From: a virus
Lineage: Duplodnaviria > Caudoviricetes
Reading direction: 5' to 3' (one strand)
IMG/VR virus record: IMGVR_UViG_3300037461_001099
Location: 1-29,496 of that record
DNA length: 29,496 nucleotides
Notes under the pieces: model-generated
Told to the model about the DNA's origin: nothing
Databases searched by the model: none
The model's input: only the letters and a program-made list of their open reading frames with translations
Part shown: in pieces, positions 3,545 through 29,496 of the stretch
Numbering within the stretch: position 1 is the stretch's first letter
Layout of the letters: each line of letters begins with the position of its first letter
Position numbers and translations under genes: made by a program

Positions 3545-3577
3545 AAAGCTAAGTACTATGTTATAGTACTTAGCTTT
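3545..3577 (-). terminator. Cassette I hairpin
   Basis: Perfect 15-bp inverted repeat AAAGCTAAGTACTAT/ATAGTACTTAGCTTT with a 3-nt loop; T-rich downstream on the minus strand. Confidence 0.7.
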
Positions 3578-3595
3578 GTGAATGGAATGAACTGA

Positions 3596-3805
3596 TTATT
3601 CGGTTTTCTTGTTAGGGAAAACAGCCGCGACAACCAAGCCGGTCAGAACCAACCCGACGATCATCTCGCCAGCGTCGTAAAGAGCACAGACAACTTTTCC
3701 ATGCTTCTCTTCCGACGGACGAGATAACTTATCGAGTTGGGTTCCGATAAACGTGCCTGTTGAGGCCATTACACCCATTTTTAAAATGCCAGTAACAAAG
3801 TTCAT
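3596..3805 (-). CDS. Cassette I small membrane protein (69 aa)
   Basis: C-terminal TM segment MIVGLVLTGLVVAAVF; directly follows the repeat motif and RBS. Confidence 0.8.
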   Translation of the reverse strand: MNFVTGILKMGVMASTGTFIGTQLDKLSRPSEEKHGKVVCALYDAGEMIVGLVLTGLVVAAVFPNKKTE

Positions 3806-3812
3806 TTTATCC

Positions 3813-3847
3813 TTCCTTTCTAATAGAACATATGTTTTCGCTGCGAA
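3813..3847 (-). promoter_or_regulatory. Array motif copy 9 (promoter-like + RBS)
   Basis: TTCGCAGCGAAAACATATGTTCTATTAGAAAGGAA. Confidence 0.75.
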
Positions 3848-3855
3848 AGAAAAAA

Positions 3856-3885
3856 GATGAGCACTATGTTTCCATAGTGCTCATC
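3856..3885 (-). terminator. Cassette H intrinsic terminator
   Basis: 13-bp stem GATGAGCACTATG/CATAGTGCTCATC, GAAA loop, followed by a T-tract on the minus strand. Confidence 0.8.
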
Positions 3886-3900
3886 AGCCTGGGAGGCTTC

Positions 3901-4095
3901 TTACATGATCTGATTGTCTGTGGTAGCCGGTTCAACGCTTTCCAAAACCTCATTGCTTCCATCTTCCGGAAGCTGATCCAGCACATATAAGGTCCCGAGG
4001 ACCCCGAGTACTGCACCAGCAGTCGCGGAAAGACCGATAACAACTTTGGTTTTGTTATTATTGAACCAAACCCTAACCTGATCTTTCGTAACCAT
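3901..4095 (-). CDS. Cassette H small membrane protein (64 aa)
   Basis: TM segment VVIGLSATAGAVLGVLGTLYVL with an acidic tail; motif and RBS upstream. Confidence 0.8.
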   Translation of the reverse strand: MVTKDQVRVWFNNNKTKVVIGLSATAGAVLGVLGTLYVLDQLPEDGSNEVLESVEPATTDNQIM

Positions 4096-4103
4096 TTTAG
4101 TAT

Positions 4104-4138
4104 CTCCTTTCTATTAAAGTCTATGTAAATGCTGCGAC
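4104..4138 (-). promoter_or_regulatory. Array motif copy 8
   Basis: GTCGCAGCATTTACATAGACTTTAATAGAAAGGAG, starting immediately after the upstream stop codon. Confidence 0.75.
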
Positions 4139-4897
4139 CTACCAAATCTTAGTTGGCACATTCTTGAAATCTAACACGATACAAGGAATTCCGCCCTCAG
4201 CAATCTTTGATGAGAAGTGAATATCTAGCAGCCCATTATCTATATTCCACCCCAGAGACTTACCCAATTCAGTCCCTTCAAGCCCAATCTCGTAATATAA
4301 CTCATTAATGGACATGCACATTTCTCTAAGTAAACGCGCATTAAAATCGTTCTGAATCTTTCTAACTGCTTCAATTTCGGTTTTAAAATATCGCCCCGAC
4401 AAAGAATCATAGAATAAAGTATCCCCCTTACCCAAAACAATAATATCCTTCTTAGATAAAGGATCTTTATTTAAGTGATCTTGAGAAATGGCGTCACGTA
4501 TTTTCTCTTCCTTTCGCTCTCCAATCGTTTCGATAACTTTATGCTTATACTCATTTAACGCCTTCTCTGATAAAGCATATAACCCAGACAAAGCGGCATT
4601 GCGACGCAAAGAAATATTATTCGATCCTATATTTGTTGAAATACTAATAATTGTAAAAAATGCCGTTGGAATATAGCATTTCCAGGTAACTTTCAGCTTC
4701 TCAAAATTAGAAAGATCTGGATTTCGAGTTTCCTCATCTTGAATGAGATATAGTGCTTTAGGAGTTGCACTAATTCCGGATACCACAGCCCAAACCGTCG
4801 TTAATGCACTAATGCCCGTTAAAATACTAGAAGAATTTTTAGTTCCAAACTCAATCCCTTTTCTAATTCCGATTTTTAATAATGGTATAATATTCAT
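4139..4897 (-). CDS. DUF6353-like phage protein, paralog 1 (252 aa)
   Basis: KNSSSILTGI...ATPKA, TWKCYIP, RRNAALSGLY, FYDSLSGRYF, SINELYYEIGL...LGW motifs; AAGGAG RBS. Confidence 0.75.
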   Translation of the reverse strand: MNIIPLLKIGIRKGIEFGTKNSSSILTGISALTTVWAVVSGISATPKALYLIQDEETRNPDLSNFEKLKVTWKCYIPTAFFTIISISTNIGSNNISLRRNAALSGLYALSEKALNEYKHKVIETIGERKEEKIRDAISQDHLNKDPLSKKDIIVLGKGDTLFYDSLSGRYFKTEIEAVRKIQNDFNARLLREMCMSINELYYEIGLEGTELGKSLGWNIDNGLLDIHFSSKIAEGGIPCIVLDFKNVPTKIW

Positions 4898-4922
4898 AAT
4901 TTTCTCCTTTTAAAAAATATAA

Positions 4923-4940
4923 TCCTATGTTTCCATAGGA
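4923..4940 (-). terminator. Cassette G hairpin (weak)
   Basis: TCCTATG-GAAA-CATAGGA followed by TTATATTTTT. Confidence 0.6.
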
Positions 4941-5020
4941 CTATTATTCCGGGGATGCACCGGTAGTAACAACGCAACTACCAGCAACAATACCCCTGTG
5001 ATCACGGTTGTTATTTCCAT
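4925..5020 (-). CDS. Cassette G micropeptide, 31 aa: MEITTVITGVLLLVVALLLPVHPRNNSPMET
   Basis: Translated by hand; motif and GAAAGGAG RBS upstream; single TM segment; TAG lies inside the downstream hairpin. Confidence 0.75.
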   Translation of the reverse strand: MEITTVITGVLLLVVALLLPVHPRNNSPMET

Positions 5021-5025
5021 TTTAT

Positions 5026-5060
5026 CTCCTTTCTATTAAAGGAGATGTTTTCGCTGCGAA
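5026..5060 (-). promoter_or_regulatory. Array motif copy 7
   Basis: TTCGCAGCGAAAACATCTCCTTTAATAGAAAGGAG, identical to copies 2 and 4. Confidence 0.8.
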
Positions 5061-5067
5061 GCGAAAA

Positions 5068-5095
5068 GATAAAGCTACTTTTCAGTAGCTTTATC
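5068..5095 (-). terminator. Cassette F terminator
   Basis: 12-bp stem GATAAAGCTACT/AGTAGCTTTATC, GAAA loop, then TTTT. Confidence 0.75.
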
Positions 5096-5188
5096 AAGCA
5101 AAACAGACGTCAACGCGATAGCCAAACTTGACAACGCGACAAAACAGACTCCTAAGTCTATTAAGGCGTTTACAAAAATTTCATCCAT
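5075..5188 (-). CDS. Cassette F micropeptide, 37 aa: MDEIFVNALIDLGVCFVALSSLAIALTSVLLDKATEK
   Basis: Translated by hand; motif and RBS upstream; single TM segment; stop inside the hairpin. Confidence 0.75.
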   Translation of the reverse strand: MDEIFVNALIDLGVCFVALSSLAIALTSVLLDKATEK

Positions 5189-5194
5189 TTTAGT

Positions 5195-5229
5195 CTCCTT
5201 TCTATTATATGCCATGTTTTTCGTGCGAA
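5195..5229 (-). promoter_or_regulatory. Array motif copy 6
   Basis: TTCGCACGAAAAACATGGCATATAATAGAAAGGAG (contains perfect TATAAT). Confidence 0.8.
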
Positions 5230-5234
5230 AGAAA

Positions 5235-5268
5235 AAAGAGCATGCCATGATTCCATGACATACTCTTT
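5235..5268 (-). terminator. Cassette E terminator
   Basis: AAAGAGUAUGUCAUG-GAAU-CAUGGCAUGCUCUUU with two G-U pairs specific to the minus strand, then a U-tract. Confidence 0.75.
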
Positions 5269-5273
5269 AAAAC

Positions 5274-5435
5274 CTAATCGTCACTGAAGCTCTTTTTAAA
5301 AAGATCCGCAACGATTTCTAAGTACTTGTCCATCATTTTGACAATCATCCTTGCCGTGATCAAATCGCAGGTGCGATTCGTAATCACTACAATAACAATA
5401 GCCAACATTAGCTGAGCAAACGCATCGAAATTCAT
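5274..5435 (-). CDS. Cassette E small membrane protein (53 aa, MNFDAFAQLMLAIVIVVIT...)
   Basis: Start moved from 5459 to ATG 5435, which follows AAAGGAG; N-terminal hydrophobic segment. Confidence 0.75.
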   Translation of the reverse strand: MNFDAFAQLMLAIVIVVITNRTCDLITARMIVKMMDKYLEIVADLFKKSFSDD

Positions 5436-5472
5436 TTTAGTCTCCTTTTCCGAAAACATAGTTTGAATAGTG

Positions 5473-5502
5473 TTCTATTATATACTATGTATTTCGTGCG
5501 AA
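5473..5502 (-). promoter_or_regulatory. Array motif copy 5 (RBS displaced downstream)
   Basis: TTCGCACGAAATACATAGTATATAATAGAA, then an extra leader before AAAGGAG. Confidence 0.75.
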
Positions 5503-5546
5503 ATGATTTTCGATTTATTCCCCCGGGGTATTTTTAAAAGAAAAAA

Positions 5547-5572
5547 GGAAAGCCCTGTTACCAGGGCGATCC
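5547..5572 (-). terminator. Cassette D terminator
   Basis: GGA-TC-GCCCTG-GTAA-CAGGGC-TT-TCC then TTTTTT; the ORF stop TAA lies in the loop. Confidence 0.7.
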
Positions 5573-5731
5573 AGCTAAAATGAGATCATATATTTTTCTG
5601 TAGACGAGAACTAAATCGTCGGAATAAACAACATTAATTATAACAAGCACCAGCATAAAGATGGCGTTAATTATAACAAAGCGTTTAAATTCGGCGAAGT
5701 CGGTTTCGTTCATATCTAAAAATTTTTTCAT
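5558..5731 (-). CDS. Cassette D small membrane protein (57 aa, MKKFLDMNETDFAEFKRFVIINAIFMLVLVIINVVY...)
   Basis: Start moved from 5842 to ATG 5731, which follows the motif and RBS; one TM segment. Confidence 0.75.
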   Translation of the reverse strand: MKKFLDMNETDFAEFKRFVIINAIFMLVLVIINVVYSDDLVLVYRKIYDLILAGSPW

Positions 5732-5817
5732 TTTAATCTCCTTTCTATTAAAGGAGATGTTTTCGCTGCGAAGCGAAAAAAGGAAAGCTGTGTTTCCACA
5801 GCAGTCCTTTTTGAAAA
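5724..5817. repeat. 94-bp exact direct repeat, copy 1 (terminator + motif copy 4 at 5738-5772 + RBS + ATG)
   Basis: Base-by-base identical to 6189-6282; 44 bp of it recur at 5024-5067. Confidence 0.95.
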
Positions 5818-5819
5818 GA

Positions 5820-5909
5820 TTACTTTTTTGGAATAAATCCAAAAACCAAAATAATCCATGCTAGGATACTAACACAAATTACTAAGACGTTATTTATTTT
5901 CTCATCCAT
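5820..5909 (-). CDS. Cassette C micropeptide, 29 aa: MDEKINNVLVICVSILAWIILVFGFIPKK
   Basis: Translated by hand; motif and GAAAGGAG RBS upstream; single TM segment with a basic C-terminus. Confidence 0.75.
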   Translation of the reverse strand: MDEKINNVLVICVSILAWIILVFGFIPKK

Positions 5910-5915
5910 TTTAAT

Positions 5916-5950
5916 CTCCTTTCTATAATACTAAATGTTTCTCATGCGAA
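5916..5950 (-). promoter_or_regulatory. Array motif copy 3
   Basis: TTCGCATGAGAAACATTTAGTATTATAGAAAGGAG. Confidence 0.8.
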
Positions 5951-5987
5951 AAAAAGGAAAGCTGTGTTTCCACAGCGATCCTTTTTT
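5950..5987 (-). terminator. Cassette B terminator
   Basis: AAAAAAGGA-TC-GCTGTG-GAAA-CACAGC-TT-TCCTTTTTT. Confidence 0.75.
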
Positions 5988-5989
5988 AA

Positions 5990-6196
5990 TTACAGGATTT
6001 CGAAATATTTTAATACAACTTCCATTTTAAAAAGCTCCATTTCACGAAGAAAACGTCTATGTTCCTCTTCTAAGGCGAGAAATCCATCCTCTCTTACTCG
6101 ATTATTATTTCCCGCCATTATTTCTTTAAACATGCGTATTTGCGCTTCGTGGCGATAGAGCATTTCATAATACTTTTGATATAAAATATTTTTCAT
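5990..6196 (-). CDS. Cassette B small soluble helical protein (68 aa)
   Basis: ORF track; motif and RBS upstream; charged, with no clear TM segment. Confidence 0.75.
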   Translation of the reverse strand: MKNILYQKYYEMLYRHEAQIRMFKEIMAGNNNRVREDGFLALEEEHRRFLREMELFKMEVVLKYFEIL

Positions 6197-6282
6197 TTTA
6201 ATCTCCTTTCTATTAAAGGAGATGTTTTCGCTGCGAAGCGAAAAAAGGAAAGCTGTGTTTCCACAGCAGTCCTTTTTGAAAA
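6189..6282. repeat. 94-bp exact direct repeat, copy 2 (terminator 6242-6277 + motif copy 2 at 6203-6237 + RBS + ATG)
   Basis: Identical to 5724-5817 at an offset of 465 bp. Confidence 0.95.
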
Positions 6283-6540
6283 CTAATTTTTTCTAAGAAA
6301 ACTAACAGCTTTTGAAACCACAATGTCCGTTTTCTCAAAGTACAATACCAGTAGCAAACCGCCAATATAAAACATGCCATTAATAATCAAATCCGCTGAT
6401 ATGAGACTCAAGTTTTTACTTCGAGCCTCATATAGCGTTTTCAAATTATCGCAAGCCATTTTATATTCTTGACTGCTTGGATCTGTAACCTCAAGAAAAT
6501 CTTCTATCTCAGATATTCTAGCTTTGATTTTCTTATCCAT
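6283..6540 (-). CDS. Cassette A small membrane protein (85 aa)
   Basis: N-terminal helical hairpin plus TM segment LIINGMFYIGGLLLVLYF, then EK...SKA; motif and RBS upstream. Confidence 0.8.
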   Translation of the reverse strand: MDKKIKARISEIEDFLEVTDPSSQEYKMACDNLKTLYEARSKNLSLISADLIINGMFYIGGLLLVLYFEKTDIVVSKAVSFLRKN

Positions 6541-6547
6541 AATAAAT

Positions 6548-6581
6548 CTCCTTTCACATAAATCTATGTTTTCTATGCGAA
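6548..6581 (-). promoter_or_regulatory. Array motif copy 1
   Basis: TTCGCATAGAAAACATAGATTTATGTGAAAGGAG, 5 nt after the holin stop. Confidence 0.7.
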
Positions 6582-6586
6582 AGGAA

Positions 6587-7096
6587 TTAACTCACTAACT
6601 TATTTGGTGAAACGGCCTTATATGCTTTAGTGCTTACCCCAAGCATAATACCAGCAAAAGCAGTAATTGAAGCGATCGTGCCTACAATTTCTTGGCCATA
6701 TGGAAAACCCCAAATTTCAGACAGTGCAAAATATAATGCTCCAATAGCTGGCATAAAAATAATAACAACCCACTTTACAATATTATATGTTTTTGAATCC
6801 ATAGCTAATAGTGGAGAAAGACTATTGGGTGTTTCTTTTTCCTCAGCAAGATATGTTAGCTGATTGTATCCATCAAAAGCGCGATTAAAGTCTTTTTGCA
6901 TAGCTTTATACTGGATATTACTTAACCCAAGTAATGCACCAAGAAAAACATTCACCGCAACAATCGTTCCTACAACCTGCTCAGGTAAAGGTAATGCCCA
7001 AATCTGTGAAAGAGCAAAGTAAAAAGTCGCCAAAGCTGGAAGAGCGATTTGCGCCATAAACTTACAAATATCATAAACTTTATTGGGGAGAATCAT
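6587..7096 (-). CDS. Holin, Dp-1 family, with two tandem holin domains
   Basis: NKVYDICKFMAQIALPALATFYFALSQIW...GTIVAVNVFLGALLGLS...Y repeated as SKTYNIVKWVVIIFMPAIGALYFALSEIW...GTIASITAFAGIMLGVS...Y; located at the end of the tail operon. Confidence 0.85.
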   Translation of the reverse strand: MILPNKVYDICKFMAQIALPALATFYFALSQIWALPLPEQVVGTIVAVNVFLGALLGLSNIQYKAMQKDFNRAFDGYNQLTYLAEEKETPNSLSPLLAMDSKTYNIVKWVVIIFMPAIGALYFALSEIWGFPYGQEIVGTIASITAFAGIMLGVSTKAYKAVSPNKLVS

Positions 7097-8723: not shown

Positions 8724-9607
8724 GTTTGTTTCTCCACCATAATAAACACGTCAAGACCTTTTGTTCCGGTTCCTGATATATCAACATCAATTCTTAGAAA
8801 ATCACCGGGATTTATATCAGGATATGCGATTACTGGTTGAGTGGCAGCATTATAACTACTATATTCACCAACATCAATAGTTATACGAGTACTTAAGATA
8901 TCTGTTCCAGTTGCACCAGGGTTTGATCCGCAATTAGCAATTTGAACCGTTGGGAGACCACTTGTACTCGGAGTGATTACGCACATGTCAACATCTGTAA
9001 TAGCCCCTTCCAAATATGAAGGCACGTAAAAGAAAAGTTTTCCATTACCACTACTAACATCTTCATCATTCCAGAAGACCTTAAAATATAATAGCTCTTC
9101 ATATTTAATCGTGGCTAAAGGACCCGAAACATATGGACAAAGAATCGTTCCAACTTTATTACTAATCATATCAGAAGTAATAGTAGTAGTATTTTTTGGA
9201 ATCGTAACATATGCTAGTGGATATTGTTTAACTGTTGAAGTATTAGACAATGGCGGAGGGCTTGGGTTAGAAGCGGCCGTTCCCTTTATAATTTTTAAAC
9301 TATTTGCTCTTACTGCAAGTTCATAATTTGTTTCAAGAGCGACAATATCAATTCTTGTATAATTGGTATCAGCTGCAGAATGAGTTAAATTATAATCTGT
9401 ATCATTATAAGTCCAAGTGTGATCAAACCAAGCGCGCCCAGTCCCAACAGTTACTGTTAGACCAGAATATGGTTCAACAAAGAATTTGTCTCCAATTGAG
9501 GGGAAAATTCCATCCTCAATAACTCCGTCCATAATTCGTCCCATATGTTCGGCATTGTATACTCTATCGCCACTCGAAGAATTAAAAAAACCATATGACA
9601 AAGTCAT
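8720..9607 (-). CDS. Minor tail / upper baseplate protein
   Basis: YGFFNS..GDRVYNA, VTVGTGRAW, RIDIV, YPLAYV motifs; position after the hub gene. Confidence 0.75.
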   Translation of the reverse strand: MTLSYGFFNSSSGDRVYNAEHMGRIMDGVIEDGIFPSIGDKFFVEPYSGLTVTVGTGRAWFDHTWTYNDTDYNLTHSAADTNYTRIDIVALETNYELAVRANSLKIIKGTAASNPSPPPLSNTSTVKQYPLAYVTIPKNTTTITSDMISNKVGTILCPYVSGPLATIKYEELLYFKVFWNDEDVSSGNGKLFFYVPSYLEGAITDVDMCVITPSTSGLPTVQIANCGSNPGATGTDILSTRITIDVGEYSSYNAATQPVIAYPDINPGDFLRIDVDISGTGTKGLDVFIMVEKQT

Positions 9608-17842: not shown

Positions 17843-19360
17843 CTATCCGATTTCATATACTCGATCTTCCCATTCTATGATTAAAATTCGATCTTCAATA
17901 TCAATGATATAAGTTCTATCTTCTGGTGAAGTAATTTCTCCCATATATGGTTTATCGGCAAAAGGAATACCACTGTAAGCATCTAATGGTACTAAGTTAT
18001 GTACTTGACCGATAACTGGTCTATCAACAACTGGAATGCCACTGTAGGCATCTAACGGCACTAGTTCATGTATTTGACCTAATACGGGCTTATCAACAAC
18101 TGGGATACCACTGTAAGCGTCTAATGGGTCTAAACTGTGTGTTTGGCCTAGTACCGGCTTATCAACAACTGGAACGCCACTGTAGGCATCTAGCAGAGTT
18201 AAGACGTGAGTTTGTCCGATTACCGGCTTATCAACAACTGGAATACCACTGTAAGTGTCTAACGGCACTAGTTCGTGTGTTTGACCTAATACGGGCTTAT
18301 CAACAACTGGAATACCACTGTAAGCGTCTAATGGGTCTAAGTTGTGGGTTGCACCGCTATACAATACAGGCTTATCAACAACTGGAATGCCACTGTAGGC
18401 ATCTAATGGCACTAGTTCATGTGTTTGACCTAATACGGGCTTATCAACAACTGGGATACCACTGTAAGCGTCTAATGGGTCTAAGCTGTGTGTTTGGCCT
18501 AGTACCGGCTTATCAACAACTGGAACACCACTGTAAGCATCTAACGGCACTAGTTCGTGTGTTTGGCCTAGTATCGGCTTATCAACAACTGGAATACCAC
18601 TGTAAGCATCTAATGGATCTAAATTGTGAGTTGTGCCGCTGTACAATACCGGCTTATCAACAACTGGGATACCACTGTAAGCGTCTAATGGGTCTAAGCT
18701 GTGTGTTTGGCCTAGTATCGGCTTATCAACAACTGGAACACCACTGTAAGCATCTAACGGCACTAGTTCGTGTGTTTGGCCTAGTATCGGCTTATCAACA
18801 ACTGGAATACCACTGTAAGCATCTAACGGCACTAAGTTGTGAGCGGGACTTTCTGTATAATATACTGTAATGCGAATAAAATCGACGTATGCATCTGAAT
18901 CTGTCCCATTAGCTTGACAAGCAAAATGAGCGCCAAAATTACTATTATTAATTTCTTCAGCGGTCCATGTCGTTCCCCATAAATTATTCGCATCACCAAA
19001 AGTTACTACTGTATCGCTTGTTGTCCAGTTAGCCCCAGCGCTTTTATTATCCCCAATGCCTGTAAGATAATCTGCTTTTGATAATTGTACTAGCGCATCC
19101 TTAACAATACCATTAGCATAACGTCGTTCTACTTCAACAACAATCCCATTAATGGTTGCTCCTGTTGGAATAGAAAACCCATAAGTATAAGATAAAATCT
19201 TATAAGAGTAATCTGGAGAATCGAATGTTGGAGCAGTAATACTAGCATATACTCCATCATTCGCTTTAGTATTATCGTGATTTGTCCAACCATTGTTGTT
19301 GTAGGGGGCAACGGCATAATCAGTAGTTACAGTTGCATATCGAGGTCCTTGACTAGCCAT
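17843..19360 (-). CDS. Repeat-stalk fibre/adhesin: N-terminal beta-sandwich head, 13 tandem repeats, C-terminal EDR triplet
   Basis: GGAGGT RBS; YGFSIPTGATINGIVVEVE...VDFIRITVYY head; (HxLxPLDAYSGxPVVDKPxLGQT) x13. Confidence 0.75.
   Translation of the reverse strand: MASQGPRYATVTTDYAVAPYNNNGWTNHDNTKANDGVYASITAPTFDSPDYSYKILSYTYGFSIPTGATINGIVVEVERRYANGIVKDALVQLSKADYLTGIGDNKSAGANWTTSDTVVTFGDANNLWGTTWTAEEINNSNFGAHFACQANGTDSDAYVDFIRITVYYTESPAHNLVPLDAYSGIPVVDKPILGQTHELVPLDAYSGVPVVDKPILGQTHSLDPLDAYSGIPVVDKPVLYSGTTHNLDPLDAYSGIPVVDKPILGQTHELVPLDAYSGVPVVDKPVLGQTHSLDPLDAYSGIPVVDKPVLGQTHELVPLDAYSGIPVVDKPVLYSGATHNLDPLDAYSGIPVVDKPVLGQTHELVPLDTYSGIPVVDKPVIGQTHVLTLLDAYSGVPVVDKPVLGQTHSLDPLDAYSGIPVVDKPVLGQIHELVPLDAYSGIPVVDRPVIGQVHNLVPLDAYSGIPFADKPYMGEITSPEDRTYIIDIEDRILIIEWEDRVYEIG
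17933..18841 (-). repeat. 13 tandem coding repeats (11 x 69 bp + 2 x 75 bp)
   Basis: Recurrent ggcttatcaacaactgg...ccactgta; unit lengths sum to 909 bp. Confidence 0.95.
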
Positions 19361-25867: not shown

Positions 25868-26257
25868 TTATCCTTTTCCAGCTGGAGAAGCAGCTAATAG
25901 ATATTTGTAAACGGCTTTACTTCCTCCGCGTTCTTTATAAGCTTCTTTAATAATTTCTTTTCCAACGGTTAAAAGCGCTTTACTCAATTGACTTTTAATT
26001 GCGTCAGATCGAGTTTTTGTTAATTGCTTATATTGAACTTGTGACTGTATTCGAGTATTTAGAAACTGAATTTCTGCGTTGGATAATTCGCTAATTTTTT
26101 TCTTTCTAAGTTCTACCATTTTAGCATGATCGTCACTTAGACTATTTCTTTTTTTTTCTGAAGAAGTTTTATTTGTTGAGGAAGATCTTCCGTTTCGTCT
26201 AACTCCCCAACGCATTCCTAAAACTCCAGAATGTTCTAATACATTAATAAAGTTCAT
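25868..26257 (-). CDS. HxGxxGMRWGVRR-motif phage protein (129 aa)
   Basis: LEHSGVLGMRWGVRR N-terminus and LSNAEI...R helix, characteristic of head-region genes in this phage group. Confidence 0.7.
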   Translation of the reverse strand: MNFINVLEHSGVLGMRWGVRRNGRSSSTNKTSSEKKRNSLSDDHAKMVELRKKKISELSNAEIQFLNTRIQSQVQYKQLTKTRSDAIKSQLSKALLTVGKEIIKEAYKERGGSKAVYKYLLAASPAGKG

Positions 26258-27369: not shown

Positions 27370-28275
27370 TTATACCCCTAATTCTGGAAATAAGTAAGAA
27401 TGTTCTTTAACTAAGCGAGCAAGAATTGTTTCATTAGAAAGTTTTACAGTTTCAAATGAATTATTATTCCACTTTGGAGTTTTTTTCAAAGCTTCCCAAG
27501 GATCTGGATTTTTATAAGCTTGATCTAACACCCACCACGAAATCCCTTTAATATTTCGTCCTTGTAAGTTTTCATATCGAACTTTAGCATCAAAAGCAGT
27601 AATAGCTAAATCATTAATATAACCAGCATCACCTGTATATGCTCTTCCAATCGGAGTCATAGGATAATAGCCAATTGTATCCCATACTCCTAAAGATCTT
27701 TGAATATAATTCAAAGCATCAAATACTGTTTTTCCTCCCCAGTAAATCATTGGAAGTAATACATCTACGGTTTCAAGCCAAGCTTTACCAACTTTAACAG
27801 GATGCCACTCATTTTGCAATTTTTCCGGATTCTTTGGAAGGGCCCACCAACATAATCCTTGAGGAATTTCTGGATATTCTTTTCTTAAACCTTTTGCAAG
27901 ATAATGCGCGTTTTCAATGGCTTTTGTTTTTTCATCAAAACGAGATTCTGCATCCCAAATATATCCATCTGGTCGAAAATTTCTGCAAAGAGATAAAGCA
28001 ATTTTAAGTTCGCCAACAGGGTCGATCCCATAAAGAAAAGACCAAATATAAACTTTTAGTCCATACCCACGCAAAGCTTGTACTAGATCGATTTTAATAT
28101 TTTCTCCCCATGTTCGAAAAGAACCAAAAAGGCTTTGTTTAAAAATTGTATTACCTTCTCCGCCTTTTAAACAAACACCATCGAAACCAGCATCATGAAT
28201 AAGTTTTGCAAAATCATTTGGATTTCCTTTCATTATGTCGGGAATATTCCAAGCAAAAATAGTTTTACCAAACAT
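27370..28275 (-). CDS. Putative endolysin, glycoside-hydrolase TIM-barrel-like (301 aa)
   Basis: GFDGVCLKGGEG, GLKVYIW, DGYIWDAE (DxE), LPMIYW, GISWW strand pattern reminiscent of GH25-like muramidases; no other lysin in the window. Confidence 0.6.
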   Translation of the reverse strand: MFGKTIFAWNIPDIMKGNPNDFAKLIHDAGFDGVCLKGGEGNTIFKQSLFGSFRTWGENIKIDLVQALRGYGLKVYIWSFLYGIDPVGELKIALSLCRNFRPDGYIWDAESRFDEKTKAIENAHYLAKGLRKEYPEIPQGLCWWALPKNPEKLQNEWHPVKVGKAWLETVDVLLPMIYWGGKTVFDALNYIQRSLGVWDTIGYYPMTPIGRAYTGDAGYINDLAITAFDAKVRYENLQGRNIKGISWWVLDQAYKNPDPWEALKKTPKWNNNSFETVKLSNETILARLVKEHSYLFPELGV

Positions 28276-28291
28276 GTTAACTCCTTAATTC

Positions 28292-28399
28292 TCCAAGCAC
28301 TTAAAGAAGAGACAATGCCAGTATGAGGTTTCTTGAAAGGAGGAAACGAGTACCTTGCCTGGTATATATAACACATTGTCTCTTCTTTAAGTGCTTGGA
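28292..28399. ncRNA. Candidate structured RNA / long hairpin
   Basis: Perfect 26-bp inverted repeat (28292-28317 / 28374-28399) around 56 nt with inner pairings CCAG/CTGG and GTTTC/GAAAC. Confidence 0.5.
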
Positions 28400-28940: not shown

Positions 28941-28963
28941 AAACTTAAATCCTTTATAAGATT

Positions 28964-29003
28964 TTATTTCCCCGGAGAAATGTTAAATCCTCCGGGGAAA
29001 TAA
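28964..29003. terminator. 14-bp inverted repeat between the two rightmost genes
   Basis: TTATTTCCCCGGAG-N12-CTCCGGGGAAATAA; no U-tract on the minus strand, so a terminator role is uncertain. Confidence 0.4.
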
Positions 29004-29358: not shown

Positions 29359-29496
29359 AATAATCCTTTCTAAGTTTTTAAACAGTTTTTAATAAAATTA
29401 TACTAGTATTAACAAATTTATTATTCTTTTTTCCTCCTTTTTATAAACTTTTTATAAGAAAGTTATAACTTTTAACCCCCCGGAGAAATTTTTAAG

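Follow-up and report, generated by a model that had tools for sequence, protein, structure and literature searches.

What kind of element is the row of very short genes that follows the holin gene in the phage record IMGVR_UViG_3300037461_001099, and how is it expressed? The window, i.e. the whole stretch of DNA analysed here (29,496 nucleotides, positions 1 to 29,496 of this IMG/VR record; Duplodnaviria, Caudoviricetes), carries on its minus strand, between 6581 and 3545, nine copies of a sequence motif, each followed by a short open reading frame (ORF) and a hairpin. The reading that we favour, and hold to be moderately probable from sequence comparison, is a row of promoter/mini-gene/hairpin units that recombine at their joints and whose motif is read by a two-barrel RNA polymerase (RNAP) of the same phage lineage.

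In the 29.5-kb window, the string TCGCA-N6-ACAT has exactly nine matches, which all lie on the minus strand from 3846 to 6580 (first T of copies 1–9: 6580, 6236, 5949, 5771, 5501, 5228, 5059, 4137 and 3846), against a chance expectation of 0.15 on average and 2 at maximum in 300 dinucleotide shuffles. The motif is followed by four bases, an AT-rich hexamer, a purine run, a ribosome binding site (RBS), one ORF of 29–85 amino acids (aa) and a hairpin, and in eight of the nine copies the purine run merges directly into the RBS. ORF lengths of units 1–9 are 85, 68, 29, 57, 53, 37, 31, 64 and 69 aa. All nine downstream hairpins fold with z-scores of −4.2 to −8.1 (none of 200 shuffles was equally stable), whereas two control stretches, taken upstream of copy 1 and of copy 8, gave 0.22 and −1.36 and do not fold in this way. 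Counts, shuffles and folding thus confirm the nine minus-strand units of the original prediction, which was made from the letters of the window. Its observation of a transmembrane (TM)-like segment in eight of the nine products also holds (19-residue Kyte-Doolittle window of at least 1.77; cargo 2 reaches 0.52). The copy positions it listed identify the correct sites, although the numbers mark the RBS end of each unit, and of the hexamers it called degenerate (copies 1, 3 and 9) that of copy 3, TATTAT, is the second commonest variant of the family (70 of 341 sites). Hairpins abut the next motif at most junctions, as it had described, but copies 1 and 8 have no preceding hairpin because the row is split between units 7 and 8 by the 252-aa DUF6353 gene (4139–4897). 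Nor are the repeats constant: junctions 2 and 4 share 94 identical nucleotides (nt), junction 7 has 44 nt in common with each, and no other junction pair of the window array shares 25 nt of identity. In copy 5 the RBS lies about 27 nt further on, and a palindromic element sits between hairpin 4 and the motif. The repeats are not an assembly artefact, since in DNA run X1, the probable source, repeat unitigs had a depth of 21–30 compared with 10–13 in unique parts.

The window represents the left half of a siphovirus genome, from the terminase to DUF6353 (the record is 49% complete). It belongs to the lineage of Lactococcus phage 1706, ReqiPepy6 and the AU-AM-AW-BI-CC-DJ-EL phages, which is characterized by a protease-capsid fusion, a ReqiPepy6 Gp37-like tail protein, a DUF6353 pair and a one-strand genome; the evidence in the window comprises phrog_3270, PF14594 and two PF19880 genes. 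DUF6353 matches were found in 237 records of the 1706/ReqiPepy6 lineage. Close relatives of the window phage were not found with the two queries used: the holin returned two distant loci, and loci retrieved with DUF6353 were 39–48% identical.

The suggestion that the array might be family-wide was borne out by scanning relatives with a position weight matrix (PWM), which places the motif throughout this lineage, in phages of Gordonia, Arthrobacter, Streptomyces, Rhodococcus and Lactococcus and in gut phages, i.e. with hosts among both Actinomycetota and Bacillota. The lineage consensus reads TCGCR-N6-ACAH-N4-TWTWAT-RR. The PWM was grown from the fetched loci, with two loci turned by hand and training on the forward strand; of 61 sequences scanned with it, 59 contained sites (341 distinct ones), with 411 forward matches and none in the reversed controls, and its single reverse match lay in a locus stored backwards. 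A larger set of 243 loci contained 820 distinct sites, no locus having matches on both strands. A fixed pattern gave 188 one-strand matches in 20 of 20 whole genomes compared with five for the reversed pattern; in annotated whole genomes the motif begins only after the tail-lysis module (among the matches listed, 150 of 188). Across IMG/VR, a strict pattern is estimated from 8 of 64 parts to occur in about 960 stretches versus 27 for its reverse. Among contigs picked by the motif (47 of 61 distinct contigs among 80 listed loci, the 11 shortest and three others being left out), 44 of 47 encoded DUF6353 and 36 a member of the RNAP family, at least one of the two being present in 45. In Lactococcus phage CHPC971 (L060, 5746–6324), tandem near-duplicate units carry the variant TCACA ... 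TATAGT, which by its sequence is a natural specificity variant.

Comparison of relatives showed that the units are self-contained and are gained, lost and reordered at the repeats, in agreement with the original prediction. Within nine groups of close relatives, both ends lay inside a joint in 22 of 52 pairwise clean indels, the joints making up about 16% of the compared zone; collapsed to 26 distinct indels, 12 had both ends in a joint, five had one and nine had neither. Binomial P values for these counts presuppose that the events are independent and are given no weight here. Loci L026 and L018 differ by indels of 243 and 254 nt with an overlap of 29–30 nt, Poco6 and Pepy6 by an indel of 282 nt, and in several indels the overlap of 29–30 nt equals the length of the motif. 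Crossover points range from −57 to +58 around the motif. Cargo order conflicts among AU phages and in the DJ phage Secretariat, within a partly fixed frame in which phrog_5818 comes first and a motif copy often follows DUF6353 in relatives. Hence the proposal that cargo is exchanged at the repeats applies in part: 12 of the 26 indels run from repeat to repeat, whereas nine lie off the repeats and cargo 1 is a fixed family gene, found also as Gravy gp34 and by tblastn in L001, L010, L011, Mudcat and Pepy6. With considerable confidence we attribute this shuffling to short-homology recombination without an integrase, possibly via a phage single-strand annealing protein; Gravy encodes such a protein, which makes this the likely route. 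For the window genome itself, shuffling is inferred from the relatives and from its identical internal joints.

In contigs of X1, one apparent joint (5938–6204, with a 32-nt side) was rejected as a rearrangement, being probably due to cross-mapping between repeats. A further contig piece reads through the RBS and ATG of unit 3 (ending at 5907) into 255 unlike letters that are absent from the window; it perhaps belongs to another motif copy, located in the half of the genome that is missing here or in a sibling phage.

Integron attC sites have the consensus RYYYAAC ... GTTRRRY. No such core pair was found in the array, one lone GTTRRRY lying near copy 8, and the tyrosine integrase family PF00589 had no match in five of five genomes of the shuffling lineage, serine recombinases not being part of that search. 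The array therefore differs from an integron in having no attC pair and no IntI-type tyrosine recombinase and in providing each unit with its own motif; from a CRISPR array it differs by a spacing of 169–922 nt, by ORFs within its units and by the absence of Rfam matches at E ≤ 0.1. The likeness to both drawn in the original prediction is thus not upheld. By its sequence organisation, the array works instead like the PeSL cassettes of T4-like phages, in which joints of stem-loop, promoter and RBS flank orphan genes of a variable region and genomes differ by the units that are swapped at these joints, as set out in the accessible sections of two reports (PMC2839356; PMC4122927). Joints in the window likewise combine a stem-loop, a promoter-like motif and an RBS, and indels in relatives are bounded by joints. 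In contrast to PeSLs, which by the same sections have a sigma-70 consensus (−35 and −10 boxes) and are active in uninfected Escherichia coli (PMC2839356; PMC4122927), the motif has no normally spaced −35 box, and the array belongs to a siphovirus lineage of Gram-positive hosts.

Within the lineage, a boundary repeat of 32 bp, associated with deletions and translocations, was described for Arthrobacter cluster AU in the Giantsbane preprint (10.1101/2020.01.10.891226). It is almost certainly the same element: the PWM placed six motif copies around Giantsbane genes 37–41 and the AU translocations were reproduced. The preprint, in its accessible part, regards the repeat, within a single cluster, as a boundary of recombination and mentions neither promoters nor an RNAP. 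In DJ Gordonia phages, a TATAAT motif of 43–50 bp was interpreted as a −10 box of host sigma-70 (PMC9671010; PMC10868162). Region, repeated motif, nearby terminators and membrane genes agree with our array; these reports deal with single genomes and contain no analysis of shuffling, no cross-phylum range and no link to an RNAP. ReqiPepy6, Poco6 and clusters AM and AU have arrays of small membrane genes of likewise unassigned function (PMC5513430), with the same genomic position and type of cargo, described in the accessible text without a cassette structure. The cassette layout is thus already known from PeSLs and from the AU and DJ repeats, so that its novelty is not supported, and the repeat and its shuffling are partly in print.

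The candidate polymerase is a single-chain protein of about 900 aa encoded throughout the lineage, with RxP and DFDGD motifs and helix-turn-helix (HTH) domains at both ends, where HTH and sigma-70 region 4 profiles match. It corresponds to the YonO-like protein with similarity to HTH and RNA-dependent RNA polymerase proteins, PHROG 4291, that was predicted to be an RNA polymerase (PMC2919709; 10.1101/842583); the accessible parts of these sources propose no promoter, and no activity test was found in them. The catalytic motif D[FY]DGD was present in 46 of 46 sequences, and the DxDGD loop, the R-x-P motif and a Foldseek fold match characterize it as a two-barrel RNA polymerase. A structural model from 94 sequences (pLDDT 80.8) matched QDE-1 (E 2.7e-9) and Thermus phage RNAPs; a single-sequence fold was discarded (pLDDT 43). 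The RNAP sequence had no match in the PDB, and a related-locus search returned only the RNAP itself. The family comprises at least 8000 clusters and occurs in 250 GenBank phage records. As phrog_4291, at the right genome end, it was encoded in 19 of 20 named records that bear the motif and in 18 of 19 near-complete motif-picked contigs, compared with one marginal match in 24 controls (24 of 27 contigs). MT835485 has the motif and lacks the RNAP; as a scaffold of prophage and host DNA in which the phage part continues beyond the end of the record, it does not qualify as a true exception. These sequence data make it likely that the phage RNAP reads the motif. The N-terminal part of the RNAP profile also matches small proteins elsewhere in three genomes. 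In the window, a basic 129-aa protein with DUF7211 at its N-terminus (25868–26257) loosely resembles this RNAP tag (profile match E 2.8, not significant).

That the motif is a promoter and the hairpin a terminator or attenuator is very probable from their arrangement. Sigma-70 promoters combine a −35 box at a distance of 16–18 nt with a near-essential A at −11 and a start about 7 nt after the hexamer. Here, the best −35 match reached at most three of six positions in 309 of 341 sites and never more than four, and TG was present in 16 of 341. Hexamer position 3 is T in 99% of the sites and position 2 is A in only 86% (this A, A-11, is missing in six of the nine window hexamers), and the next two bases are purines in 100%; a sigma-70 scan gave no excess (32 vs 30.9). 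GGAG begins within 6 nt after the hexamer in 61 of 387 sites (in four of them at nt 2), 18 of 23 tRNA-like cargos begin at nt 1–5, many of them mutually related, and an ATG at nt 6–8 opening at least 40 aa occurs in only 4 of 820 sites. Long-range stems closing RNA cargos were found in 43 of 352 sites; they start at nt 1 in 10, at −1 to −3 in 13, further upstream in nine and downstream in 11. Shine-Dalgarno (SD) sites, tRNA-like 5′ ends and closing stems together predict that transcription starts at nt 1, the first purine following the hexamer, or close to it. With no −35 box, six of nine copies lacking A-11, and SD sites and tRNA-like cargo only 1–6 nt downstream, a host sigma-70 −10 box fits the sequence poorly. 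Contigs of RNA run X2 cover 3569–3808, 3840–4068, 4367–4551 and 8758–8908, those of run X3 4119–4269 and 4275–4425. The X2 gap over motif 9 fits separate units and was not counted, as contigs show neither ends nor strand nor level and DNA was possibly present.

According to the proposed mechanism, the RNAP would touch the DNA with its HTH domains at TCGC and ACA, which lie 11 bp apart on the same helix face; the AT-rich hexamer would melt at −6 to −1, and transcription would start at the purine right after it. With its own start and stop signal in each unit, a new gene would be expressed immediately at any site of insertion, and the repeated joints coincide with the gain and loss of whole units, likely by homologous recombination. 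We tentatively extend this, at slightly less than even chances, to a sigma-independent HTH-RNAP, perhaps delivered with the virion, that reads a 29-bp promoter doubling as the recombination joint of a membrane-peptide and tRNA-mimic array.

Several points weigh against the favoured reading. TATAAT, the exact sigma-70 consensus, is the commonest hexamer (166 of 341); GGAG lies at nt 5–6 in most short-leader sites, where a short host discriminator could still include it; and purine-rich starts may pair with U-tracts by chance. The motif is missing from the head-tail module according to the PWM and YonO, the one relative that has been tested, transcribes late genes, its promoter sequence being undetermined in the accessible part of that work (PMC5467207). 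In 17 of 20 loci the RNAP gene has a weak motif copy some 950 nt upstream, so that the enzyme would have to be delivered with the virion or primed by the host, and the RNAP N-terminal tag profile found nothing significant among the window proteins (best E 0.75). Since motif and RNAP co-occur within one lineage, their counts do not represent independent events; the window record itself, a 49%-complete left half, lacks the RNAP gene, and TM-scores of the RNAP fold are low (0.25–0.35). With regard to shuffling, the nine indels that miss the joints and the five that touch one, some of them nested, and the lack of a variant array in the X1 contigs count on the same side.

Some of these points would be accounted for if host sigma-A used TATAAT as a −10 box while a MotA-like phage activator, possibly the HTH domains of the RNAP, bound TCGCA and ACA as a substitute for the −35 box, the RNAP acting late. 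The geometry of T4 MotA offers a likeness, the commonest hexamer suits sigma-A, the motif precedes the RNAP operon in those 17 of 20 loci and is absent from the structural module, a second conserved element is available at the genome left end, and YonO is a late enzyme in the accessible account (PMC5467207). We nevertheless regard this as rather unlikely in view of the SD and tRNA-like 5′ ends 1–6 nt after the hexamer, of a position 2 that tolerates T beside an invariant position 3 and a conserved purine run directly after, and of the 25 Gravy proteins scanned, which included no separate activator family. Strong ordinary host promoters, i.e. true PeSLs served by host RNA polymerase alone, are improbable. 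They are the published reading for the DJ phages (PMC9671010; PMC10868162), and TTCGCA agrees with TTGACA at four of six positions; this look-alike, however, lies only 14 nt from the hexamer, there is no −35 box at 16–18 nt and almost no TG, and the same motif spans diverse hosts while being nearly confined to the lineage (45 of 47 contigs). A published link between motif and RNAP was not found in a literature search that left most subscription journals outside.

Two further alternatives concern joints and cargo. An integron-like arrangement, in which a dedicated site-specific recombinase acts on the joints and the expression signals are secondary, would explain why several indels end precisely at the motif and why variable cargo alternates with repeats; given the crossovers scattered around the motif, the single copies outside the array, the missing attC core pair and the lack of PF00589 in the five genomes (serine recombinases lying outside the search), it is highly improbable. 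It is distinctly unlikely that most of the short ORFs arose neutrally as cassettes were duplicated in AT-rich DNA and lack a selected function. AT-rich ORFs are hydrophobic by composition, eight of the nine window cargos have no relative in the loci searched, and cargos 2 and 9 match only themselves; against this stand 46 cargo families common to relatives, TM-like windows in 88 of 170 families, a strong RBS at every window ORF and the conservation of cargo 1 across host phyla.

None of the nine cargos has a Pfam match, and PHROG matches are limited to cargo 1, plus a weak one (0.006) for cargo 7. Cargo 2 matches only itself among 5.8 billion proteins, as does cargo 9 in the large protein search, which left out cargos 3, 6 and 7 as too short as well as 4, 5 and 8. 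In the lineage, 369 cargo ORFs form 170 families, 124 of them singletons. RNAs that resemble tRNAs or form T-loop hairpins, with unusual anticodon arms, also serve as cargo of these cassettes in gut, Gordonia, Rhodococcus and Arthrobacter phages (L018 4064–4141, L032 6823–6896, L058 6351–6423, L136, L184, L191 and L052 from 4116); mostly unannotated, they are possible tRNA mimics or decoys. Judging from size, hydrophobicity, position and turnover, the cargo might consist of early host-facing membrane peptides and small RNAs for competitor exclusion or counter-defence, a guess that we hold to be somewhat doubtful.

For a putative class of minimal two-barrel RNA polymerases, the repeat provides a ready candidate substrate. 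Should the phage enzyme indeed read the motif, a promoter would be defined for the first time for a YonO-like RNAP, Gram-positive hosts would gain a compact orthogonal expression system, and there would be a model for sigma-free promoter recognition; the gene called HTH DNA-binding protein in many records would have to be re-annotated, and host-independent expression of swapped accessory genes would help to explain the crossing of host phyla. Through the array, hundreds of small orphan membrane proteins and tRNA-like RNAs can be picked out as probable early, host-facing candidates.

Along the minus strand, the row begins after the holin gene (6587–7096; PF16938, E 3e-47; phrog_9233), the final gene of the tail-lysis module, which combines two tandem Dp-1-type domains within one ORF; no endolysin was identified beside it, and a 301-aa ORF at 27370–28275 is without family match. 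Motif copy 1 (hexamer TTATGT) and its RBS (6548–6580; predicted start near 6555) precede cargo 1 (6283–6540, 85 aa, one hydrophobic segment; phrog_5818, E 3e-11). Junction 2 (6189–6282), with hairpin, U-tract, motif copy 2 (6203–6236), RBS and first codons, is identical to 5724–5817 and leads to the soluble orphan cargo 2 (5990–6196, 68 aa). Motif scan and folding place junction 3 at 5916–5987 (copy 3, 5916–5949), followed by the hydrophobic cargo 3 (5820–5909, 29 aa), which has no family match. Junction 4 (5724–5817; copy 4, 5738–5771) precedes cargo 4 (5558–5731, 57 aa, hydrophobic), whose stop codon is overlapped by a hairpin core (5552–5567). The palindromic CCCCGGGG-type element (5513–5538) and copy 5 (5473–5501, TATAAT, longer leader before the RBS) are followed by cargo 5 (5274–5435, 53 aa, hydrophobic N-terminus). 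Junction 6 (5195–5268; hairpin 5235–5268, copy 6 5195–5228) introduces cargo 6 (5075–5188, 37 aa, hydrophobic), and junction 7 (5026–5095; hairpin 5068–5095, copy 7 5026–5059) cargo 7 (4925–5020, 31 aa, hydrophobic), with a hairpin (4919–4944) overlapping its 3′ end. The DUF6353 core gene (PF19880, E 6e-66) has no PWM match of its own and hence is probably expressed by read-through from copy 7. Copy 8 (4104–4137) stands directly after it, a position common to many relatives, and precedes cargo 8 (3901–4095, 64 aa, one hydrophobic segment; Atlas matches all below 0.9). Junction 9 (3813–3885; hairpin 3856–3885, copy 9 3813–3846, TCTATT), the hydrophobic orphan cargo 9 (3596–3805, 69 aa) and the last hairpin (3545–3577) complete the row; the PWM scan found no motif copy for the genes further downstream (3526 to 295) in the window.

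The second lineage-wide element, AAAAWTYCCCGGGG-like and palindromic, recurs at the left ends of genomes and, in many cases, a single time within the accessory array. It is located in the window at 29470–29495 (the contig left end), 28962–28987 and 5513–5538, and in relatives at the left end of Gravy (L042, 1–27) and at L053 3059, L057 2810, L058 4498 and L015 5192; it is a candidate late promoter or packaging-protein site. Near the left end, a perfect 26-nt inverted repeat with a 56-nt spacer (28292–28399) lies between two genes, and the tail module (17843–19360) contains a 505-aa protein built from 69-nt and 144-nt repeats. At the right genome ends of L061–L079 lies an inverted repeat of a G-run and a C-run, with TCGCA often present in its loop.

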